From Candidatus Hydrogenedentota bacterium (GTDB lineage Bacteria > Hydrogenedentota > Hydrogenedentia > Hydrogenedentales > Hydrogenedentaceae), in contig JAOAHN010000063.1 of the NCBI GenBank assembly GCA_026415215.1, positions 778 to 64,777 of the forward strand: 64,000 nucleotides of DNA, written 5' to 3'. Shown in pieces: positions 9,523 through 34,879 of this stretch. Below the pieces are notes generated by a model that was not told the DNA's origin, searched no databases, and worked only from the letters and a program-made list of their open reading frames with translations. Each line of letters begins with the position of its first letter. Position 1 is the first letter of the stretch. A program made the translations under genes and the position numbers.

Positions 9523-10506
9523 ATGCAAAAGAAGGGTTTTACTTTAATTGAACTACTCGTCGTCATCGCCATTATTGGCATACTTGCTGCAATTCTACTT
9601 CCTGCTCTCGCCCGCGCCCGTGAAGCCGCTCGCCGGTCAAGCTGTCAGAACAATCTAAAACAATGGGGACTCGTTTTCAAGATGTATTCCAACGAAGCTA
9701 AGGGAGAAAGATTTCCCCCGATTCAGGCAGGTGTCTACTTGGATGCAAATCAGCAATACAGAGGTGTGTTAGACGCTGGACCAAATGTATTTGTCCTTTA
9801 TCCAGAATACTTGACTGACCCAATGATAGTCTTCTGTCCATCTGATGCAGAGTTGGGAACTTCTATTGCCCGAGCACACTTCAATGACGATGTGAACCAA
9901 GATTGGTGTCTGGGTTATGCACACAACCATGGTGGAAGATGCGCTCGCGCTATCGACATGAGCTACGGTTACCTCGGATGGGTTTTAGATAAGGGTAATT
10001 GCGACGATCCTATAACCACTGTTTCCTCTTTCCCATTATTAGGAACATTAGCCCAAATGTTAGGCGTACAGCTCGATCCCAACACTCAGATCTCATCCCA
10101 AGTAGGTGCTGCTTTTGAATATCTTGTCCAGCAGGCGCTTCCTTTAATAGGAGTAGATCCTAATACCTTACCCAAAGGGATTTATCCTACCATCGACCAA
10201 GACATCCCTGTTACTGCAGGTCTTGGTAATGGCGGTGGCTCGACAATCTATAGGCTAAGAGAAGGTATTGAGAGATTTTTAATTACCGACATCAACAATC
10301 CAAGTGCCTCTGCCCAAGCTCAAAGCAGTGTTTGGATAATGTTCGACCAACTCTCTACAAATCCCTCTGCATACAACCACATTCCGGGTGGCTCTAATGT
10401 GCTTTACATGGATGGACATGTGCAATTCCTGAGATACGGCGAATGTGAACCTGCCCCAGTTAACAAACCAATGGCGGTATTGGTTGGAATCCTAACTTCG
10501 AGCTAA
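9523..10506 (+). CDS. Prepilin-type N-terminal cleavage/methylation domain protein with a C-terminal DUF1559 (H-X9-DG) domain, a pseudopilin-like secreted protein.
   Basis: [44 protein letters not shown] is the classic type IV pilin-like leader and methylation site. The C-terminal [15 protein letters not shown] fits the H-X9-DG motif. This family is massively expanded in Planctomycetes and other PVC lineages (established knowledge). Confidence 0.8.
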
Positions 10507-24977: not shown

Positions 24978-25559
24978 ATGGTAGCGGTAAACTCTCAAAT
25001 GGTCCCTCTTGGCACTATTGCACATCACTTTGAATTACCAGATCCCACAGGAAAAATATATAAATTAAGCAACCTAAAAGGAGAAAAAGGAACATTAATA
25101 ATATTTATGTGTAATCATTGTCCATTTGTTAAGCATGTAATCAGAGAAATTGTGAACATTGCAAATGACTATGTTAGAAAAGGGATTGCAGTAGTAGGTA
25201 TCAATTCTAACGATACCCAGAAGTACCCTGAGGATTCACCTCAAAATATGATTGAATTCATCAAACATGAAGAAATACCATTTCCATACCTTATAGATGA
25301 AACTCAAGAAGTGGCAAAATTATACAAAGCAGCTTGCACTCCAGATTTTTTCCTCTTTGATTCAGAGCTAAGACTTTTCTACAGAGGACAATTGGATAGT
25401 TCGAGACCCGGAAATAATATACCAGTTAGTGGAGAAGATCTCAGAAATGCCCTCGAGTCTCTCCTTTCAGGTAAATCTCCACCAGCAAATCAAAAACCGA
25501 GTATGGGATGCAACATAAAATGGAAACCAGGTAATGAACCCGACTATTTTAAGCCCTAA
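24978..25559 (+). CDS. Thioredoxin-fold protein with a CxxC active site (AhpC/TSA or TlpA-like).
   Basis: FMCNHCPFV CxxC motif in a thioredoxin-like context. No signal peptide. Confidence 0.55.
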   Translation: MVAVNSQMVPLGTIAHHFELPDPTGKIYKLSNLKGEKGTLIIFMCNHCPFVKHVIREIVNIANDYVRKGIAVVGINSNDTQKYPEDSPQNMIEFIKHEEIPFPYLIDETQEVAKLYKAACTPDFFLFDSELRLFYRGQLDSSRPGNNIPVSGEDLRNALESLLSGKSPPANQKPSMGCNIKWKPGNEPDYFKP

Positions 25560-25703
25560 CTGATATTCCTTATAATAGACACAATTTTACTGTCTTTACT
25601 CCTATAGTTTATCAACCACTTGGAAAAGATACTACTCTATTGTGTATATTTTTATAATTAAATTTGTATATTTATATAATAATGCTGGTATAAGGTTACA
25701 AAT

Positions 25704-26162
25704 ATGGGTAATGAAAATGCTCAAATCAGTAAATCGGAGGTAAGGATACAAACCTTTAGAATATCCATGTACATTCTTTCAGCTTTATATCTTGGAGGTG
25801 CATTATTTTTCTTTTTCATTCCTGACGGCGTATACTATATTCTCAATTTCCCTCCTCTATTTCTCAAGGTATTACATCCACTCCCCAAAGAAAATGTAGA
25901 CTTTTTCTGGTTACCCCTTGTAGGTTCTTTGATGTTTGTTCTATCCCTTATTGCATATCATTCAGCCAAGGACCCAAAAAATACAACCTTGGTAAATATC
26001 CATATAATATCTAAATTTGTATCATCAATGGGGTACCTCTACCTATTCATCTTTTCTTCCAAAATATTTGGATACATTATCGGCTTTACCCTCGACCTAC
26101 TTATATGCATCTATGTGTTTTATCTGAAAATCCAGATTAAAAACTATATAAAAGAAACATGA
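25704..26162 (+). CDS. Small polytopic membrane protein (4 TM), first gene of a translationally coupled 4-gene operon.
   Basis: Four hydrophobic helices. ATGA stop/start overlap with the next gene. Confidence 0.4.
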   Translation: MGNENAQISKSEVRIQTFRISMYILSALYLGGALFFFFIPDGVYYILNFPPLFLKVLHPLPKENVDFFWLPLVGSLMFVLSLIAYHSAKDPKNTTLVNIHIISKFVSSMGYLYLFIFSSKIFGYIIGFTLDLLICIYVFYLKIQIKNYIKET

Positions 26163-27196
26163 AATTCCCATACAAAGTTACTAATTCTCCGTTTTTCCAA
26201 CAATTTGAAAAATGTTATGAAGTATGGTATTGGAAATTAAATTCACTTGATAAAAAGTTCGCTTTTTGGTATAGATTTACAATACTTAAAACTCCACTCA
26301 AATCTATTGTCGAGGTATGGGGAATTCTCACACAAAATCTCTCAACTACTCATCAGAGCCCCAAATACCTGTTGAGAGGAATAAAAAATACCTTCGACCT
26401 TAATGAGTTAAAAGTTTCATCTGAAGCAAATAAAAGCTTACTTGAAGTTCGAGAAAACTTTACGAACTTTAGTGAAACAAGAGGTCATATAACTGACAGT
26501 GAAGGTGTTATTAAATGGATACTATTCCATAGACCCGAGAATGGTCCATTGTATTATAACTTTATTCCACAAACCCTTTGGAAAATAGGACTTTCAAAAA
26601 ACTATGCTGTCACTACATATGAAAATCTGATGTTTGAAGGAGAGATTATTTGCGACGATAAAGTGATCCCCGTTGAACAAGCACTTGGAATGCAAGGTCA
26701 CCTATGCGGAACACAACAAGGACACTCTTGGGCTTGGGCTCATGGAAATATTTTTTATAACGAAAAAACAGGAGAAAGAGTCCCGTGTATTGTAGATATT
26801 TTAACTGCTCGCACTAAGTTAGGAAATTTTTTAACATCTCCTAAAATTTCATCTGTATTTATAAAATATAAAGACCAAATATTTTCTACTTCGAGCATTA
26901 CCGATTTACTTAAAGTCCACTCCTATTATGAGCCATCTTACTGGAAACTCAAAATCAAGAACAATAAACGCAAATTTATAATTGATGTAGACACAGAAGA
27001 AGCCTCTATAGCGGGCGTAAAATATGAAGATACTGACAACACTAATCTATACTGTTACAACTCAAAAGTCGCTACTATAAAAATTAAGATTTTAGATGCG
27101 GTTTCCAACGAAGAAACACTTCTGATTAGCCCTAAATTATCAGCATTTGAATGGGTTCAAAGAGAAATTTGGAACAAAAGGGAAATCTTGATATAA
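26159..27196 (+). CDS. Hypothetical soluble protein, possibly tocopherol-cyclase / CrtC-like fold (weak).
   Basis: N-terminal SPFFQQFEKCYEVWYWKL…KKFAFWYRFTIL loosely resembles the FFEGWYFR…FAFMYSI start of tocopherol cyclases. This is memory-based and low confidence. Confidence 0.35.
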   Translation: MKFPYKVTNSPFFQQFEKCYEVWYWKLNSLDKKFAFWYRFTILKTPLKSIVEVWGILTQNLSTTHQSPKYLLRGIKNTFDLNELKVSSEANKSLLEVRENFTNFSETRGHITDSEGVIKWILFHRPENGPLYYNFIPQTLWKIGLSKNYAVTTYENLMFEGEIICDDKVIPVEQALGMQGHLCGTQQGHSWAWAHGNIFYNEKTGERVPCIVDILTARTKLGNFLTSPKISSVFIKYKDQIFSTSSITDLLKVHSYYEPSYWKLKIKNNKRKFIIDVDTEEASIAGVKYEDTDNTNLYCYNSKVATIKIKILDAVSNEETLLISPKLSAFEWVQREIWNKREILI

Positions 27197-27200
27197 AACC

Positions 27201-27635
27201 ATGAAAAACTTTGTGATTAAAAACTCTTATTACATCATCTCGACTTTCTTCAGTGATTCAAATACCATATTAGAGGGGACATCACCGGAAGACCTGTGGC
27301 TTGAAATAAGAAAAACCTTATCCTCGATTCCCAGAGTAAACAGACTGCTAATTTTGTTCTCTATAATACTTATTTCATTTATATTACCTCCCTACGGAAC
27401 ATTCAATATTTTTTACAAAGCTCCTCTTGAAAAAAGAAAAAAATGGTTAAGTGCATGGGCGGAGTCGCAATTTTCAATATTTAAATATGCGTTCGTAGGT
27501 GTCCGCATAATACTTTACGGAAGTTTTTCTCAGCTTCCCACTGTAATGCAAAAAACAGAGTATTTATCTACTTCTCTCAAGACGAGAGATTATGAGTTAA
27601 CCTGTACAGAGGTAATCAACCGGTTAAATGAATGA
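27201..27635 (+). CDS. Small single-TM protein, possibly an accessory subunit of the downstream GMC oxidoreductase.
   Basis: One TM (LLILFSIILISFILPP). Overlaps the GMC start by 8 nt. Confidence 0.35.
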   Translation: MKNFVIKNSYYIISTFFSDSNTILEGTSPEDLWLEIRKTLSSIPRVNRLLILFSIILISFILPPYGTFNIFYKAPLEKRKKWLSAWAESQFSIFKYAFVGVRIILYGSFSQLPTVMQKTEYLSTSLKTRDYELTCTEVINRLNE

Positions 27636-29175
27636 TTTCATAAGAGAAATATATCACTCGAAAAATGTAATAGACCTATACTCAAATCCTTCTTGTGAAT
27701 ACACTAAAATTACATACGACTTTATTGTAGTCGGTAGCGGGGCAGGTGGAGCAGTAGTTGCTAAAGAATTGTCCGAAATTGGGGCAAAAGTAGCACTAAT
27801 AGAAGAAGGCCCATTACCCTTTCCATTTGAAAAATCTGCCTTTCGTTCTCTATTGAAAATATATAGAGAAAGTGGTTTTACAGGAGTCTTAGGAAAGCCT
27901 ATGATTCCCATACCACTTGGTAGGTGCGTTGGTGGAACTACTACTATAAACTCAGGCACTTGCTTCAGAACTCCGCAAGAAGTTTTTGACAAATGGAATA
28001 ATGAACTTAACCTTTCTACCCTTGTGAATAGCAATTGGGAATATCTCTTCACAAAAGTAGAAAAAGAAATCCATGTCGAAGAAGCAAAATGGGAAGTAAT
28101 GAACAAATCAAGTCATTTCATAAAAAGAATATTCACTACTCATGGATATGAATGTTTGCCATTGCGAAGGAATACAGAAAACTGTCAAGGCTGCGGAATG
28201 TGTTGTTATGTTTGCACTTCAGGTGCTAAAAAAAGTATGGAAGTTAGTTATATCCCTAAAGGGATAAAAAATGGGATGCTTCTTTTCTATAACGCAAAAG
28301 TTACAAGGATTTCATTAGACTCAAACCATAAAAGAATAACGGGAGTAGAAGTAGAAATTGTAAATCCCTCTAATAAGAAGCCTTTAGGAAAGATTAATAT
28401 AAAAGGAGGAGTGGTAATAATCGCATGCGGAGCGCTTCTTACCCCATCCCTCTTACAAAAAAGTGGCATAGCGAGAAATAACACTCACTTAGGAAAACAT
28501 TTAACTATACACCCCGCAAGTAAAATCTCCATAGAATTAGAAGAAGACATATATTCATGGGTGGGAATTCCTCAAGCTTGCTATAGCACTGCTTTGGAGA
28601 AGGAAGGAATAATATTTGAAGGGGTAGCAATGCCTCCTGATTTAGGACCATCTGCTATACCTTTTATAGGAGAAGAACTTGTAAACTACTTCACCAATTA
28701 TAGAAAAATGGCAACCTTTGGCTTCATGATAAAAGACTCTACTGAAGGTTATCTCAAAACACATATAAATAACCAGCCAATCTATTACTATCAGTTAACT
28801 GAAAGTGATGTATCAAGATTGAAAAAAGCGATAACTTTTCTTTCTGAATTAGCTATGAGTGAAAAAACAAAAAAGGTCTATGCTATGGTAAGCAAAAAAC
28901 CAAATGTTTTTTCCTCATTAGAAGATATTCAAAAGTTTATGAAAACGAAACACTCTCCGAATGATTTTGAATGTATGGCTTTTCATCCACTGGGCACATG
29001 TAGAGTAGGAACTTCACCTGAAAATGGTGTCTGTGACGAAACACTTAAGGTATTTGGAACGGAAAACCTGTATATATGCGATGGGAGTGCAATTCCTACT
29101 TCTCTCGGAGTAAACCCTCAACTAACCATAATGGCTTTTGCCACAAGATTAGCAACCATTATAAGCAAAACCTAA
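27628..29175 (+). CDS. GMC-family FAD-dependent oxidoreductase.
   Basis: N-terminal YDFIVVGSGAGGAVVA FAD fold. C-terminal GMC signature AFHPLGTCRVG and GSAIPTSLGVNPQLT. Confidence 0.85.
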   Translation: MNDFIREIYHSKNVIDLYSNPSCEYTKITYDFIVVGSGAGGAVVAKELSEIGAKVALIEEGPLPFPFEKSAFRSLLKIYRESGFTGVLGKPMIPIPLGRCVGGTTTINSGTCFRTPQEVFDKWNNELNLSTLVNSNWEYLFTKVEKEIHVEEAKWEVMNKSSHFIKRIFTTHGYECLPLRRNTENCQGCGMCCYVCTSGAKKSMEVSYIPKGIKNGMLLFYNAKVTRISLDSNHKRITGVEVEIVNPSNKKPLGKINIKGGVVIIACGALLTPSLLQKSGIARNNTHLGKHLTIHPASKISIELEEDIYSWVGIPQACYSTALEKEGIIFEGVAMPPDLGPSAIPFIGEELVNYFTNYRKMATFGFMIKDSTEGYLKTHINNQPIYYYQLTESDVSRLKKAITFLSELAMSEKTKKVYAMVSKKPNVFSSLEDIQKFMKTKHSPNDFECMAFHPLGTCRVGTSPENGVCDETLKVFGTENLYICDGSAIPTSLGVNPQLTIMAFATRLATIISKT

Positions 29176-31880
29176 TTTGTATGTAGGGAGAAAGAATCAA
29201 TCCAAAAAACTGCGGAATTATGAACCGTTGGAACAATCTTAATAGACTTAACCCGACCTAACCATCGAGGATGCGTTCTTAAATCAAATGTATAGATATA
29301 ATAATTCCCGTCAGCTCTAACAGGAATAGTTATTGAATTAGCTTCATCAAAATTCATCATCTTGAAAGCCCAGTAGAGTTTTACTTGAGAAACTCCCTCA
29401 CTAACATTATCTACCCTTAGCCTAATTGTAGCTCTCGGATACTTGAAAGCCAAAATTCCTTCAGTGTCATAGAAGAAAAAATATATAGAGGAATTTTCCG
29501 TGAGGGTCTTTCCCATTAAACTACCATCTACTACCTTCAAGTCATCTATCCCACTTAACACCTTCCATCCAGAAGTGCTATCCTGAAAATCCCAAAAAGT
29601 CCTTATCGGCTCAATCGGAAAATCATAAGGACCTAATCCAACATCTTCAGGAGCTATATTTACGGGCAGTGGTTCAGTATTCGACTTGGCAAAAACATCT
29701 CTTATAGCCTCATACATAGAAAATCCAAACTCGACATTAGGCTCTATATAACTGCCCTCTCCCCATTCATTCAAGGGACCCAATACCACAATGTTATTGT
29801 GATTTTCCTCTGTGTAATGTCTCGCCTTCAACAAAATCTCTCTAAATAACTCCGGAGTTCTACCAGAAATTACTAAAGCTCTTGTTCCATGCCAAGGACG
29901 GGAATCCCACCCTGTTTCTACTAAGGGATAATATATGATTCCCTCACAAAGGTTCCTTTTTTCTACCCACGAGGAATATGCAGTTTGTACTACATCTTCA
30001 TATCTCGCATAGTTAGAAACTGATGACTTCTGTAATGCTTTTTCAAACTCATGATAGTTTGTAAAACAAGCATAACCTTCTTCTACTAAAGTCTTTAACT
30101 CCGATGGAGTTCGGTTATTATTAACCGCCATGAAAACTATTCCATCGAATCCCTTCTCTTTGGCTAATTCCTGCGACCTCGTCAATAAAACCTTTACCGA
30201 GTCAGAGCCACCTAAATCATTTCTCAAATTCTCAGGGGACCAAATACAAACCAAGGGTTTATTACCTAACTTATAATAAGAAGGCAAATTAAAATAATTA
30301 TCGAGCCATTCGAGATTAACTTTTTCCCAATCTTCGGGAGAGTGAGTTTTAGGAGGGTTATGATTAGCCCACATTATAGCTACTTTTAGATAGTCCCTAT
30401 ATTTCGCTTTTTTATATGCTTCAAACCAATGTTTCAAAGATTGCCTTCCCGCAACCCAGTACCAATCAACCAAAAAACACTTTATCCCATTTTCCACTGC
30501 CCATTTAATTTGCCAATCTACACATTCTGGGTTACCCTCATTATAAAAACCTAAAGCTGGTTTTCTAACAGGGGATACGGTCCTAATACAATCCCACTTC
30601 TCCGCTGTGTCCCATCCTGGGAAATAAAAAGCACATAGATCCACCTTAGTCTCAATAGGTTTAGGCTCAGGAACATAATCTACCTCAACCTTCTGAATCT
30701 CTGGAAGAACAGTGATTTCGGCTGTATTTTCAGCTAACAAATCCTCTTTCGAGAAAGCTTGGACTTTTAATAAATGTTTACCATCTTTATCGCTTTTTAT
30801 AATCCATTTAACACTCGTATATTCCCCATACTCTACTATGTAAGGAGGCTCCGGCATTGGCCCTTCAACTATATCTATTCCTTCGGAAACTTCTAATCTT
30901 ACATCTCTAATTTCCTTCTCACCACCACCTATGTTACTAAACCTTGCCATAATTCCAAAAGGCCTGTTAACTCTATTGATTGCGTTCTCAGGTCCAAGGT
31001 AATTAACAGATAATTCAGGTTGCCCTAAAGGCTCTTCTCCTAAACTAATCTTAAATATCTTCATTTTTTGTGAATCAGGCAGTATAAATCCCATTGCTAC
31101 AAGTGTCCCAATCCAATTATTCTCCGAGGACATGTCCAAAGTGATGTAATGTCTTTTGCCATCACACTTATTAAAGGGAACTGAGATAGAGCGAAGACCT
31201 GAAATCTCTTTACTACTCCACAAAAATGTAATTGGAGGAACACAACCATCACTTGAATACTCAATACTTATAAAGGTTCTCTTACCCAACTCCAACTCTA
31301 AAGGTGGAGAAAAAAAATAATTAGAATTTTCTTCAATTTTCCAGCTCGAAATATCACCTTCGGGGAAAATCCAATCCCAAACATTATTAAAAGGAGATTC
31401 TTTACTCCAGGATTTAATAGAAATCTTTTCTATCTCAAAATTTACCCCTTCATACAAGTCTAACCTAATTTTCTTTATTTTACCTTCCTTATGCCAAAAG
31501 GGGAATATGCAAATCTCCTGCCATTCATTAGTATCCTTAACATTAAAGAAAGTAGATTTCTCCTGAGATAATCCGCCGTAAGGACCCTCATCGGTTCCAC
31601 TCCAAAATAACTGGCCAACCCCTCCTTTATCCACCCGGAGTTTCACTTTTAGATATTGATATGGTGTCGCTTCCAAATCCAATTTCTCACAAAGCAAATA
31701 AGGATCATAGCCCGAGGTAAATCCACTCAACTTTCCATCCGAAACTCTAATGTTTGAAATATACGAGTTAGGGACCCATACCGAAATCACATCCTCCTTA
31801 TCAAAAAACCACTCAGGTAATTGAGAAAACACAAGAAGTGAGAACATCAGAATACTCATACCGTAGTAATCTCCCTCCAA
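29172..31880 (-). CDS. Large secreted protein with a WbsX-like (GH99-like TIM-barrel) glycosyl hydrolase/transferase-like domain.
   Basis: N-terminal hydrophobic leader. The central AFYFPGWDTAEKWDCIRTV…GFYNEGNPECVDWQIKWAVENGIKCFLVDWYW resembles the WbsX FYLPQFH…GyYdl.npev…A..yGIdGF.fyhYW block. Confidence 0.45.
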   Translation of the reverse strand: MEGDYYGMSILMFSLLVFSQLPEWFFDKEDVISVWVPNSYISNIRVSDGKLSGFTSGYDPYLLCEKLDLEATPYQYLKVKLRVDKGGVGQLFWSGTDEGPYGGLSQEKSTFFNVKDTNEWQEICIFPFWHKEGKIKKIRLDLYEGVNFEIEKISIKSWSKESPFNNVWDWIFPEGDISSWKIEENSNYFFSPPLELELGKRTFISIEYSSDGCVPPITFLWSSKEISGLRSISVPFNKCDGKRHYITLDMSSENNWIGTLVAMGFILPDSQKMKIFKISLGEEPLGQPELSVNYLGPENAINRVNRPFGIMARFSNIGGGEKEIRDVRLEVSEGIDIVEGPMPEPPYIVEYGEYTSVKWIIKSDKDGKHLLKVQAFSKEDLLAENTAEITVLPEIQKVEVDYVPEPKPIETKVDLCAFYFPGWDTAEKWDCIRTVSPVRKPALGFYNEGNPECVDWQIKWAVENGIKCFLVDWYWVAGRQSLKHWFEAYKKAKYRDYLKVAIMWANHNPPKTHSPEDWEKVNLEWLDNYFNLPSYYKLGNKPLVCIWSPENLRNDLGGSDSVKVLLTRSQELAKEKGFDGIVFMAVNNNRTPSELKTLVEEGYACFTNYHEFEKALQKSSVSNYARYEDVVQTAYSSWVEKRNLCEGIIYYPLVETGWDSRPWHGTRALVISGRTPELFREILLKARHYTEENHNNIVVLGPLNEWGEGSYIEPNVEFGFSMYEAIRDVFAKSNTEPLPVNIAPEDVGLGPYDFPIEPIRTFWDFQDSTSGWKVLSGIDDLKVVDGSLMGKTLTENSSIYFFFYDTEGILAFKYPRATIRLRVDNVSEGVSQVKLYWAFKMMNFDEANSITIPVRADGNYYIYTFDLRTHPRWLGRVKSIKIVPTVHNSAVFWIDSFSLHTN

Positions 31881-32023: not shown

Positions 32024-34879
32024 TTACCGTGGTAGGCAGAATCCATCAATGTCAGCACTATTGTCTCCACAATCTCTCATATATCCACCGATATTGAAGA
32101 ATTGTATCAGTCTTAGTAACTCTGTAAGTTGGATTTTCCAATCCTGGGGACTGTAATCGCTCAAATGCGGTTTACACATTCTTAGGGACAGATCATCACC
32201 TGGCATATATCCATCCTCTGACTGACTCAAAGCACAGTGATAACCTCCAGCGTTGAAAAATTGAATAACTCTCAAGAGTTCACCAAGCTCAATCTTCCAA
32301 TTTCGATTAGTGTCCGCAGAGTGATATGGGGAATCCTCTCCTTCATCATCACCTTCAATACTCCCTTCTGAGACTCCTTCTATTTCACCTTCAAGTATTA
32401 TCTCTCCTTCTAAACCGCCCTCTGAGAGCCCTTCCGTATCACCTTCTACTTCACCTTCATTTACTCCCTCCTCAATCACACCTTCGGATGAACCTTCTTC
32501 GATCCCTTCAGTAGAACCTTCAATAACACCTTCCTCAACACCATCTACAGAACCTTCTATTTCGCCTTCAGATACTCCTTCAGTAACACCTTCAAAAACT
32601 CCTTCTGAGACACCTTCGGGTATTCCCTCGACAACACCCTCAGACACTCCTTCCATCACACCTTCGGAGATCCCTTCTCCTTCTTCATAGCCCTCTACAA
32701 TACCTTCACTCACACCTTCTTCAACAGATCCTTCCAAAGAACCTTCCGCTGTACCTTCTCCTTCTTGAACCATATACGGTTCAAAGTCATAACAATCCAA
32801 TACACCATTTTGATTCAAATCAACCGCATTTAATTGTTCTTGAGTAATGGAAGAATTTAATCCTTGCAGTTCATAAAGAATCAGAACCTCATCTCCATTA
32901 ATATCAATATCTGTGAACAGGTCATATATAACGCTTACTCTACTGAACTCACTTACACTTAATTGCCCGTCCCCATTAGTATCCACAAGATACCATCCTA
33001 ATAGCACTGTATCACTCCACCCAGTAATAGCCTTCAATTCATCCCTTGAAAGCAGTTTATTTCCATCTGTATCTCCAAACATCAAAAGGATATAATAATA
33101 ATGGACAATATCCGTTATATCACAAGGAGCCTCACCTCCATATACCCAACTATAATCCTCCGGACAAGGTGGGCATCCACCCCCGTCTGATGTCACATTG
33201 ATATCCAATGCAGAAGCCACAAATACATCATAATTCTGTGGAGATGTTACATGTGCTGTGTATTCACCCTTATTACAAACATTGTCAAAATCAGGATCAC
33301 CATCTGAGGCAAGATATTGGCCCGCAGTAGTGTCATATTCGTCGATAGTAAATGTTCCCCAGAAGTAAATGTAATCAATAATCTGAACTATTCTATTTAT
33401 GAAAGCTTTCTCGCCAGTGGTTAAGACACCAGCGATTACCGGAATGAATACCGAACTGGAAATAAACTGACCGATAAAAGGCAAAGAATTCCATTTAGTC
33501 TGGGCAGTTACTCTATTATTCATATAAGAATTCCTGACACAACAGAAAATTGGTAAATCAGGATGTGCAAGAATATAGTCTAACAATCTGGCTTGAGCAA
33601 CATCCGCTATTCCATTTTCGTCAATATCTGCGGTATCAGGATTAAGTCCTAACCAAGAAGCAAGGTTGTATAAGCTTCTTAGCGAGCTCTCAAACTGTGA
33701 ACTCACAGGGGAATTACTACATGTACTCCAACACCATTCAGCATAACAAGATTGGGGGAGCGGACCTATCAGATCCCAACAATCGAGATAGCCATTATCA
33801 TCTATATCTATTTCGTCAAATTTAGCCTGGGTTATCTTGCTACTCAACTGTCTTATCTCCGTCAAAGTTACTTTATTATCCCCGTCTGCATCTAAGTGTT
33901 GAGGTAATAAGCCACCTAAACGATTACTATCAACAAATTCTTGGTAGGACATATAGCCATCTCTATCTTTATCAATCAACCACCACCCCAACTCAAGTAA
34001 AATTCCATTAACGAACGCCTTTAGTTCATTCTTCGAAAGTTTTCCATCTGCATTGGTATCCCCGAAGAGCACAAGCAGAGCGAAGTAATTCTCATTAGAC
34101 CTCATATCACACTGGGGCCCCGGGGTTCCTTCTCCCTCACCAGTGCCCTCACCTTGCCCACAGTCAGGACAGCCCCCGTAATAGTCCCTTACATTAGGAT
34201 TTACTGCAGCGGATACAAAAGCATTAAAATCATCGGGTATCGTTAAAACCCAAGCTCTATACTCACCAATATTACAGACTCTATCAAGGTCAGCATCACC
34301 CTTAGCATTGAGATACACTATGTTTGAACCATCAAGCTCTAAGAGAGAAAGATCTGGCAAGTCAGGAATTATCCATTTTAACGCACTTAGTATCGTATTT
34401 ATGATTTCTTCATTTCCCATCGTTGCTAAAGCGGCAAAAAATGTCTTTAGATTTTCTAAATCAGGAGGCTCCCCAAGATAAGATGGCCAACCCGCATTAA
34501 TAGCCATAGCTAAAGCTTCGACCTTTACCCTATTCGCTACATAAGACCAATATATACAATTCCGAGTAGAAATCGCATTAAGAGGATTCATCTTCATTAT
34601 AGTGTCAAATAATCTTGCTTGAGCAACATCCTTCATTCCGTCAAAGTCAAGATCTAAGTTGTCCGGATTACCACCCAATAGAGGGATCTTCGTATACAGC
34701 TCACGCATCGAGTTTTCAAAACTCTCTGTATAAATTAGCCCAGGTATAATGTTATTACAAGGAGGAATATTACAATAATCTGGTTCTTGGGACTGCGAAT
34801 ATACATAGCCTAAATTAAACAAAATAAAAACTACTAATATATACATCACCCTGGGAGTATATGTAACACTTACTTTCAT
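32024..34879 (-). CDS. Large secreted Ca-binding repeat protein with multiple EF-hand/dockerin-like loops, two copies of a roughly 175-aa module, an acidic EG-repeat tract and a C-terminal twin ELLRVIQFFN module.
   Basis: Signal/TM leader. Canonical 12-residue loops DTNADGKLSKNE, DKDRDGYMSYQE, DADGDNKVTLTE, DTNGDGQLSVSE. An (EG[VIS]xEG)n tract of about 140 aa. C-terminal NWKIELGELLRVIQFFNAGGYHC … DWKIQLTELLRLIQFFNIGGY. Confidence 0.7.
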   Translation of the reverse strand: MKVSVTYTPRVMYILVVFILFNLGYVYSQSQEPDYCNIPPCNNIIPGLIYTESFENSMRELYTKIPLLGGNPDNLDLDFDGMKDVAQARLFDTIMKMNPLNAISTRNCIYWSYVANRVKVEALAMAINAGWPSYLGEPPDLENLKTFFAALATMGNEEIINTILSALKWIIPDLPDLSLLELDGSNIVYLNAKGDADLDRVCNIGEYRAWVLTIPDDFNAFVSAAVNPNVRDYYGGCPDCGQGEGTGEGEGTPGPQCDMRSNENYFALLVLFGDTNADGKLSKNELKAFVNGILLELGWWLIDKDRDGYMSYQEFVDSNRLGGLLPQHLDADGDNKVTLTEIRQLSSKITQAKFDEIDIDDNGYLDCWDLIGPLPQSCYAEWCWSTCSNSPVSSQFESSLRSLYNLASWLGLNPDTADIDENGIADVAQARLLDYILAHPDLPIFCCVRNSYMNNRVTAQTKWNSLPFIGQFISSSVFIPVIAGVLTTGEKAFINRIVQIIDYIYFWGTFTIDEYDTTAGQYLASDGDPDFDNVCNKGEYTAHVTSPQNYDVFVASALDINVTSDGGGCPPCPEDYSWVYGGEAPCDITDIVHYYYILLMFGDTDGNKLLSRDELKAITGWSDTVLLGWYLVDTNGDGQLSVSEFSRVSVIYDLFTDIDINGDEVLILYELQGLNSSITQEQLNAVDLNQNGVLDCYDFEPYMVQEGEGTAEGSLEGSVEEGVSEGIVEGYEEGEGISEGVMEGVSEGVVEGIPEGVSEGVFEGVTEGVSEGEIEGSVDGVEEGVIEGSTEGIEEGSSEGVIEEGVNEGEVEGDTEGLSEGGLEGEIILEGEIEGVSEGSIEGDDEGEDSPYHSADTNRNWKIELGELLRVIQFFNAGGYHCALSQSEDGYMPGDDLSLRMCKPHLSDYSPQDWKIQLTELLRLIQFFNIGGYMRDCGDNSADIDGFCLPR
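32330..32760 (-). repeat. Coding low-complexity tandem repeat (acidic EGVSEG-type tract) inside 32024..34879.
   Basis: Reiterated ccttc/accttc units in the DNA, translating to …EGVSEGIVEGYEEGEGISEGVMEGVSEGVVEGIPEGVSEGVFEGVTEGVSEGEIEG…. Confidence 0.7.

Follow-up and report, generated by a model that had tools for sequence, protein, structure and literature searches.

A 64,000-nucleotide stretch of DNA from a Candidatus Hydrogenedentota bacterium (GenBank assembly GCA_026415215.1, contig JAOAHN010000063.1, positions 778 to 64,777 of the forward strand; hereafter the window, in whose own numbering coordinates are given) carries four consecutive same-strand genes, here called A to D. They encode a four-helix membrane protein (A), a soluble protein with the fold of tocopherol cyclases and CrtC/AttH-type hydratases (B), a small hydrophobic protein (C) and a GMC-family flavoenzyme (D). 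Here we show that this arrangement recurs in other phyla and that its members also occur as A–B and C–D fusions. We propose that the four proteins probably make up two enzymes of a membrane-lipid pathway, for which fatty-alcohol or ether lipids are a tentative substrate class.

Gene A lies at 25704-26162 (+; 152 residues), B at 26159-27196 (+; 345 residues, identical (100%) to N3G21_05435), C at 27201-27635 (+; 144 residues) and D at 27628-29175 (+; 515 residues). The list of open reading frames (ORFs) and a base-by-base reading of the junctions bear out these four ORFs as an earlier reading of the letters alone, the original prediction, had placed them. The ATG of B overlaps the TGA of A by 4 nt (ACATGAAAT at 26159), and the stop of C and the start of D overlap by 8 nt (ATGAATGA at 27628). 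Both overlaps had been predicted; of the several 4-nt gaps listed with them there is one, in which AACC separates the TAA of B from the ATG of C at 27201. This spacing may be longer than 4 nt, as the start codon of C is ambiguous: the NCBI annotation gives a protein of 140 residues with a slightly different start (N3G21_05440), compared with 144 residues from the first ATG. The junctions suggest translational coupling of A to D. Stop/start overlaps are common in bacteria and are weak evidence by themselves; that the operon goes beyond chance follows from the conservation of gene order across phyla and from the occurrence of the genes as fusions.

No terminator-like site is found on the + strand within the A–D block (25704-29175). 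A promoter-like site (TTTATA, an 18-nt spacer and TATAAT; 25651-25680, +; 10/12 consensus positions) is suitably placed within the 144-nt AT-rich spacer 5′ of A, and sites of this kind are no commoner across the region than in shuffled sequence. Rfam searches returned no family at the gathering threshold in the 64-kb window and none in the leader region 5′ of A.

Folds and motifs of the four proteins

Protein B has no signal peptide and no transmembrane (TM) segment, as judged by hydropathy and direct reading. Its AlphaFold2 model, built with 16 homologues, is all-beta (predicted local distance difference test score (pLDDT) of 86; predicted template-modelling score (pTM) of 0.87). Compared with solved structures, the model scores 24.6 against both Fsa2 and CghA, 24.2 against both the pericyclase 7dmo and AttH, 22.7 against kievitone hydratase (a CrtC domain) and 18.4 against 25-phosphosteroid lyase, with the next best at 7.6. 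B therefore shares whole-chain structure with the solved members of the AttH/CrtC-like double-barrel superfamily, to which tocopherol cyclases also belong, at a sequence identity of just 7-11%. The fold similarity on which the original prediction of a tocopherol-cyclase-like or CrtC-like protein depended is thus present in the model.

Searched with a profile, 1.84 billion cluster representatives yielded 909 relatives of B, 119 of them at E<=1e-30. Neither of the Pfam models proposed for checking, Tocopherol_cycl (PF14249) and CrtC (PF07143), matches B directly. Among 46 diverse relatives, however, 28 match PF14249 at E<=0.01 (best E 7e-17), two (P0030 and P0096) exceed its gathering score and no other family recurs; not one of the 46 matches PF07143. 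The similarity always falls in the C-terminal half of the model (profile positions about 133-335), rather than at the N terminus, where the resemblance had originally been seen. We conclude that B is a divergent branch of the Tocopherol_cycl Pfam family, with the fold common to CrtC/AttH hydratases.

True tocopherol cyclases are defined by YxEKNWG, the proposed catalytic region, and an adjacent FP+xWxW+QxNxF (PMC4963081). YxEKNWG is absent from 157 of 157 B-family members, B included. A WxWx[H/Q]xNxF motif, taken from the same work, is found at B residues 191-199 as WAWAHGNIF (26729-26755, +) and is kept in 85 of the 157 members, nearly all with H replacing Q. B thus behaves like its fold family without qualifying as a bona fide tocopherol cyclase. 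Acidic and histidine positions are strongly conserved over the 157 members (E331, 99%; an acidic residue at 213, 96%; H181, 91%; E21, 89%; H195, 88%), as are D291 (83%), Y289 (82%) and the tryptophans W54, W120, W191, W193 and W262 (85-99%; W191 and W193, 93%). CrtC protonates an isolated C=C and has H239, W241, Y266 and D268 as essential residues (PMC4717167). The acid, histidine and aromatic set of B appears to be of the kind that CrtC uses, and we claim no one-to-one match: with residue equivalence judged by sequence alone, Y289 and D291 are 82-83% conserved and H189 just 42%. A CrtC-like 'HxW' at H189 was rejected on that basis.

Protein D was predicted to be a GMC oxidoreductase, and both Pfam domains exceed their gathering scores (GMC_oxred_N, 159.6 bits, cutoff 23, E 1e-46; GMC_oxred_C, 87.8 bits, cutoff 24.6, E 1e-24). 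Its GxGxxG motif for flavin adenine dinucleotide (FAD; GSGAGG, residues 36-41; 27733-27750, +) aligns with GGGSAG of choline oxidase, and the catalytic pair H453 (28984-28986, +) and N496 (29113-29115, +) aligns with choline oxidase H466 and N510 (phmmer). D is a GMC flavoenzyme in which, to judge from these alignments, the FAD motif and the catalytic His/Asn pair are intact. An isoleucine occupies the position of the choline oxidase covalent-FAD histidine, so the flavin of D is probably non-covalent. D has neither a signal peptide nor a TM segment and is remote from all solved GMC enzymes (best E 6e-16, chiefly over the last 80 residues). Residues 186-196 form a five-cysteine cluster, CQGCGMCCYVC (C-x2-C-x2-C-C-x2-C; 28183-28215, +), followed by SGAKKS and conserved as C-x-G-C-G-x-C-C-Y-G-C-x-x-G-A-K in 16 distinct orthologues; Fer4 Pfam matches to it are weak. 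By analogy with a cysteine-bearing GMC dehydrogenase discussed below, D may relay electrons through a Cys-ligated iron–sulfur (Fe–S) centre.

Two small membrane proteins were predicted in the operon and both are found. Hydropathy indicates that A is a four-helix inner-membrane protein; its AlphaFold2 model (pLDDT 91) has five helices. The loops obey the positive-inside rule, and a Lys-rich loop 2-3 and the C terminus would put both termini in the cytoplasm, an orientation compatible with the gene order in the AB fusions. Conserved residues are F68-W69, S75, H100, S103-K104, S107, G127 and D131. A has no Pfam or NCBIfam match, and 106 of 106 homologues are annotated 'hypothetical protein'. C has one hydrophobic hairpin or TM segment at about residues 40-71 (hydropathy), and its N terminus, MKNFVIKNSYY, contains no twin arginine on direct reading. 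None of 16 C homologues has a Pfam match, and a word-index search with the C alignment gave 12 standalone relatives and no fusions resembling long-chain fatty alcohol oxidase (FAO). Across Pfam, NCBIfam and PDB sequence searches A, B and C received no annotation, and A and C belong to unannotated protein families. The sole PDB profile match obtained in annotating A, B and C, to polyphosphate kinase (E 0.011), was judged spurious.

A distant, standalone subfamily of A-like four-helix proteins (about 141 residues) was also seen with no B gene nearby (L144:7001-7426, L145:4761-5186, L146:7001-7426, L147:7001-7414 and L148:8001-8426). In L144 the neighbouring genes encode acyl-CoA dehydrogenases, a thiolase and a 3β-hydroxysteroid dehydrogenase/NAD_binding_4 reductase.

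Conservation, fusions and gene neighbourhoods

A scan of one genome per species with a 15-sequence B alignment yielded 57 loci and a metagenome scan 80 more, giving 137 in total. Hosts of the one-per-species loci are Hydrogenedentota, Bdellovibrionota (Bdellovibrio, Bacteriovoracaceae and Oligoflexia), Myxococcota, 'Deltaproteobacteria', WWE3, Bacteroidota and others. Within Hydrogenedentota the order A-B-C-D is kept down to 41% identity, including at one locus with both flanks different, and different phyla share the order of the four genes while differing in what flanks it. Conservation of the arrangement in related genomes, which the original prediction had put forward as a check, therefore holds in Hydrogenedentota and beyond, with fusions in addition.

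A lies next to B in 31 and is fused to it in 2 of 51 judgeable reference-genome loci; in the 54 metagenome loci, A is fused to B in 8 and adjacent in 3. The AB fusion genes are those of L054, L055 and L064-L071, and longer B proteins have an N-terminal extension homologous to A. C is always directly 5′ of D or fused to the D N terminus (L052 and L048), and the GMC genes of about 600 residues that follow AB fusions bear C, with significant similarity in L066 and visible homology in L064 and L068. Because the four genes appear elsewhere as a two-gene AB|CD system, these Rosetta-stone fusions lead us to read A–B and C–D as two two-component enzymes.

The GMC gene is nested within the occurrence of A. 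Among the 68 loci with enough flanking sequence, B is followed by a D-type GMC gene in 27 of the 37 that contain A and in 0 of the 31 that lack it (Fisher p = 5e-11, for loci that are not phylogenetically independent). In two unrelated lineages A–B is accompanied by a GMC protein of a second type, which has a ferredoxin-like CxxCGxCxxGC motif and lacks a C partner (L044:5942-7579 and L054:9087-10712); L044 has the C–D type as well. A GMC protein thus stays associated with the B enzyme even when the paralogue changes. Many distant B homologues occur without any of the partners.

Several loci place the module among lipid genes. In a groundwater 'Deltaproteobacteria' metagenome-assembled genome (MAG), a tight seven-gene operon (L052:2188-10792) encodes an EamA transporter, an alkyl-dihydroxyacetone-phosphate synthase (AGPS) homologue, GlpD, a protein like fatty acyl-CoA reductase (FAR), A, B and a CD fusion. 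Its FAD-linked oxidase is a full-length AGPS homologue (E 2e-96 to 2uuu, compared with 3e-35 for D-lactate dehydrogenase), its glycerol-3-phosphate (G3P) dehydrogenase is of the DAO/GlpD type and its FAR-like gene is NAD_binding_4. In a Bacteroidota MAG (L054), the AB fusion and GMC gene are followed by a further AGPS homologue (E 1e-86). FAR-like genes lie directly 5′ of A in L042, L045 and L052 and beside B in L073, and FadB-like and acyl-CoA dehydrogenase genes are present in L044. In L066 the beginning of the AB gene shares 4 nt with the gene for a Hydrolase_4 alpha/beta-hydrolase (the family of monoacylglycerol lipases and lysophospholipases), and P0135 is a fusion of such a hydrolase with B. 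Wherever the neighbours are informative, they indicate acyl or ether lipids; across the 137 neighbourhoods there is no recurrent gene for isoprenoids, carotenoids, quinones or sterols. A published account of Hydrogenedentes from bioreactors describes them as lipolytic and glycerol-degrading (PMC6121073). As an aside, the L052 gene set looks like a bacterial ether-lipid set unlike the myxobacterial Elb/Agps operons.

Other neighbours reflect lineage. The Hydrogenedentota flanks (YfhO, ClpB, Alginate_exp and WbsX) are lineage synteny, uninformative on function, and the neighbours of a distant soil B subfamily (CCA-adding enzyme, YfiH, SepF and ProC) are housekeeping synteny. The conserved neighbours of A–B in Bdellovibrionota are a secretin (PF00263), a T2SSE/CpaF-like ATPase (PF00437), MetK and TldD. 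A–B is directly 3′ of the secretin and ATPase genes on the same strand in L149, L016, L022, L025, L027, L028, L030, L031, L033, L035, L046, L047, L057 and others; in L149:272-4265 the ATPase gene extends 23 nt into the start of A. This link may be either phylum-wide synteny or a real operon tie of a pilus or secretion system to A–B.

Around the operon, the window encodes sugar oxidoreductases, 2-oxoacid dehydrogenase E2 and E3 components, sigma-54 and glycosidases. An AhpC/TSA or redoxin-fold protein of 193 residues (24978-25559, +) ends 144 nt 5′ of A; its gene is kept in the Hydrogenedens relatives L001 and L002 and absent in L003 and L005, and is probably outside the operon because it is missing in some relatives. 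On the other side, a convergent gene for a 902-residue protein (29172-31880, -) overlaps the D stop codon by 4 nt at its end. Its orthologues carry Glyco_tran_WbsX and Glyco_hydro_99 domains, and L003 has other genes in its place. A 951-residue protein (32024-34879, -) has two repeated halves with DxDxDG motifs that resemble the calcium-binding sites of EF hands or dockerins, and an extended acidic tract of low complexity (E/G/V/S) with, for example, EGVSEGVVEG repeats. A type IV pilin-like protein (9523-10506, +) combines an N-terminal methylation motif with DUF1559 (SBP_bac_10), as is typical of Planctomycetes-type genomes. There are no tRNA genes in the 64-kb window, the G+C content ranges from 34 to 41%, and 29 of the 32 bins have a negative GC skew, which makes the cumulative skew fall almost steadily.

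A candidate membrane-lipid pathway and its alternatives

We think it probable that the operon has a two-enzyme, membrane-lipid architecture. The fuller proposal, in which two two-component enzymes cooperate on a lipid substrate at the cytoplasmic face of the inner membrane, has in our estimate a little less than an even chance of being correct. Both enzymes would face the cytoplasm because B and D lack signal peptides and TM segments and the termini of A are predicted to be inside. The membrane-associated lipid, isoprenoid or quinone modification pathway originally predicted is supported overall, with acyl or ether lipids favoured over isoprenoids or quinones, for which no genes recur. Long-chain fatty-alcohol or ether (alkyl or alkenyl) glycerolipids are the likeliest substrate class, put forward tentatively, because elsewhere the module is operonic with AGPS, FAR, G3P dehydrogenase, beta-oxidation genes and a lipase-type hydrolase.

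In the proposed mechanism, A would tether B to the membrane, and its intramembrane H100, S103-K104, S107 and D131 may present the lipid to B. At a C=C of a long hydrophobic chain, B would then catalyse an addition or elimination that begins with protonation, with E331, H181, H195, E21, D291, Y289 and the five tryptophans as the candidate residues. Such chemistry is suggested for B because it is common to the characterized members of its fold, among them CrtC, kievitone hydratase, tocopherol cyclase, the archaeal hydroxy-GDGT (glycerol dialkyl glycerol tetraether) synthase Hgs and, in reverse, 25-phosphosteroid lyase. C would anchor D, and D would oxidize the lipid hydroxyl that B makes or consumes, passing the electrons to the quinone pool rather than to O2, possibly via a Cys-ligated Fe–S cluster.

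Several observations weigh against this proposal. The activities of all four families are predictions, and B itself has no Pfam match even at E<=1 and no NCBIfam or PDB sequence match. The fold of A is a generic four-helix bundle whose structure matches are no better than designed helical bundles, and distant A-like proteins exist without B. Searched against the PDB, the central Cys segment of D gave no alignment to the Burkholderia cepacia FAD-dependent glucose dehydrogenase (BcGDH), and its ferredoxin matches were non-significant. The lipid-gene associations come from about 7/137 loci, perhaps three or four independent lineages, and the 64-kb window holds no AGPS, FAR or GlpD homologue. In Bdellovibrionota, the largest A–B group, the secretin and T2SSE ATPase neighbours are unexplained by a lipid model. 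There is also a chemical difficulty. An AttH-like hydratase is known to act on membrane-lipid tails, and such hydratases are so far known to make tertiary alcohols only (both bioRxiv 10.1101/2025.10.20.683597). Tertiary alcohols are not oxidizable by a GMC enzyme, so that hydration followed by oxidation needs an unusual substrate.

A coupled scheme in which B acts before D would therefore need a cation that is otherwise stabilized, and a vinyl ether fits. B would hydrate the vinyl-ether bond of a plasmalogen or lysoplasmalogen, with protonation giving an oxocarbenium ion and addition of water a hemiacetal; this would either collapse to a fatty aldehyde and a lysolipid or be oxidized by D to an ester. 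Glucose oxidase oxidizes a hemiacetal to a lactone, the same chemistry as that proposed for D. The scheme is speculative and we regard it as improbable, although it agrees with the gene context (AGPS, FAR and lipase). Equally improbable as it stands is its extension, in which A–B would be a hitherto unrecognized, non-homologous vinyl-ether (plasmalogen) hydratase and C–D a hemiacetal or fatty-alcohol dehydrogenase, converting alkenyl-ether lipids to ester lipids or else freeing their fatty aldehyde and oxidizing it for beta-oxidation.

The fold of B invites two isoprenoid alternatives. It might be a chromanol-forming cyclase that acts, like VTE1, on a menaquinol- or plastoquinol-like prenylquinol, with the GMC enzyme in quinol/quinone redox. 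The overlap of the B family with Pfam Tocopherol_cycl, the retention of WxWx[H/Q]xNxF adjoining the proposed tocopherol-cyclase catalytic region and the AhpC/TSA-type thiol peroxidase-like gene just 5′ in the window would all agree with this. Yet the Pfam similarity is limited to the C-terminal half of the model, the signature YxEKNWG occurs in 0/157 family members and the peroxidase-like gene is missing in L003 and L005. No prenyltransferase, methyltransferase or quinone gene is present in the window or the 137 related loci, no isoprenoid gene recurs in those neighbourhoods and the informative neighbours are acyl-lipid genes. A chromanol cyclase seems unlikely. Very unlikely, in our view, is a CrtC-like hydratase of a terminal isoprene in a carotenoid or other isoprenoid, from which D would form a keto-carotenoid or keto-isoprenoid by oxidizing a neighbouring hydroxyl. 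No family member matches the CrtC Pfam model, H189 of the putative HxW is 42% conserved, no neighbourhood contains crt genes and the tertiary alcohol products are not oxidizable by a GMC enzyme.

Other substrates have also to be considered. The resemblances of B to 25-phosphosteroid lyase, of D to cholesterol oxidase and of A to the sterol-binding membrane proteins EBP/EXPERA would together suggest modification of the side chain or rings of a steroid or polycyclic triterpenoid, a reading that we consider highly unlikely. None of the three is more than weak or generic (D scores 99 bits for cholesterol oxidase, where the cutoff is 850, and A matches no structure better than it does designed helical bundles), sterol or hopanoid genes are lacking nearby and, to our knowledge, the hosts neither make nor use sterols. 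If C–D were instead a sugar or glycoside dehydrogenase complex and B processed the keto-sugar, in an operon for glycan catabolism, this would account for the likeness to BcGDH gamma-alpha of a gene order in which a small gene precedes one for a GMC protein that bears a Cys cluster, and for the wealth of glycan genes in the window (WbsX/GH99 3′ of the operon, GH2, GFO/IDH/MocA and mannitol dehydrogenases). But C shows neither a twin-arginine signal nor a Pfam match to Gluconate_2-dh3, the operon encodes no cytochrome c subunit, and D differs from BcGDH in its Cys spacing and does not align with it in the central region. The glycan gene 3′ of D is moreover convergent and replaced in L003, we know of no AttH-fold enzyme that acts on sugars, and the cross-phylum partners are lipid genes; a sugar system is thus quite unlikely. 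Least credible of all is that the four genes are co-transcribed neighbours with no shared pathway. Some conservation of order does reflect relatedness, as the wider Hydrogenedentota flanks (YfhO, ClpB and Alginate_exp) are syntenic too, but fusions of A with B and of C with D in separate lineages, a four-gene order kept in different phyla between different flanks and the strict nesting of the C–D-type GMC in A-containing loci (27/37 vs 0/31) all speak for a common function.

We therefore favour two cooperating enzymes of membrane-lipid metabolism. Literature searches found nothing relevant linking tocopherol cyclase with GMC enzymes or bacterial gene clusters, and no characterization of the B family, A, C or the four-gene operon. 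The folds of the catalytic proteins have been seen before, but the module of four parts, with its fusions and lipid context, seems to be undescribed. This study assigns the tocopherol-cyclase-like group of heterotrophs to a structure class and identifies its obligate partners, which are A and, in many of the lineages, also the two-part GMC dehydrogenase. It supplies fusions of the Rosetta-stone kind as well, and a substrate hypothesis open to testing, fatty-alcohol or ether lipids. Synthesis, remodelling or degradation of ether lipids without the known enzymes would bear on the reading of alkyl-glycerol biomarkers in sediments. If the module does act on ether lipids, it would give the field a new enzyme family and the AttH/CrtC fold a new reaction type. 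Should the plasmalogen route be correct, it would provide oxygen-independent ether-lipid turnover in Hydrogenedentota, Bdellovibrionota, Myxococcota-like and Bacteroidota lineages, unrelated to TMEM86/YhhN, AGMO, PlsAR and CarF. With any other substrate, two unannotated families (A and C) are still defined and their roles tied to known catalytic folds.

Comparison with known systems

Tocopherol cyclase-like proteins of heterotrophic bacteria were noted in 2016, their function being unexplained (PMC4963081). B lies in the same Pfam neighbourhood as the tocopherol cyclases VTE1, SXD1 and Slr1737 (PF14249, EC 5.5.1.24) and shares WxWx[Q/H]xNxF with them. Its expected chemistry would be alike, an acid-catalysed attack on a C=C of a long lipid tail at the membrane surface. 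B differs from these cyclases in having no YxEKNWG, H where they have Q and a sequence below Pfam detection, as well as in its four-helix membrane partner, its GMC partner and the absence of tocopherol or quinone genes nearby.

Among enzymes of the AttH/CrtC fold are CrtC, kievitone hydratase (7a0q), AttH NE1406 (2ich), Hgs and 25-phosphosteroid lyase (9fzn). Compared with them, B has no CrtC or AttH Pfam match and a different conserved set (E331, H181, H195 and E21), and whereas the known hydratases make tertiary alcohols on isoprenoids, the gene context of B is one of acyl or ether lipids. Its resemblance to the fungal decalin-forming Diels–Alderases Fsa2 and CghA and to the pericyclase 7dmo is in fold alone: these are pericyclases of fungal pathways that combine a polyketide synthase (PKS) with a non-ribosomal peptide synthetase (NRPS), and no PKS or NRPS genes lie near B.

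For C–D the closest parallel is BcGDH, in which a Cys cluster in the GMC subunit binds a 3Fe-4S centre and a small partner subunit is required (PMC6719666). In both systems the GMC subunit has a His/Asn pair and, within its N-terminal domain, a conserved Cys cluster, and the gene for a small partner lies just 5′. The BcGDH hitchhiker subunit is, however, unrelated in sequence to C, which has no twin-arginine translocation signal; the Cys spacing is C-x2-C-x2-C-C-x2-C in D and CC-x4-C-x3-C in BcGDH; and BcGDH is periplasmic whereas C–D is probably cytoplasmic. A multihaem cytochrome c subunit is found neither in the window operon, which ends at D, nor after D in related loci; a cytochrome-like ORF lies 5′ of the module in a single case, L065.

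The eukaryotic FAOs (EC 1.1.3.20) are membrane-associated GMC enzymes that act on long-chain fatty alcohols (PMC9299179), and the FAR gene context of the module fits fatty-alcohol metabolism. The N-terminal extension and CGxCCxGC motif of plant FAO presumably resemble C plus D, which we take as a lead and not as a result. The lysoplasmalogenases TMEM86A/B and YhhN, alkylglycerol monooxygenase (AGMO), PlsA/PlsR, CarF/PEDS1 and AGPS act on the same proposed class of substrate; none of them is homologous to A, B, C or D, so that A–B, if it acts on ether lipids, would represent a non-homologous route. One of them, AGPS, is encoded in the same operon as the module in L052 and L054.

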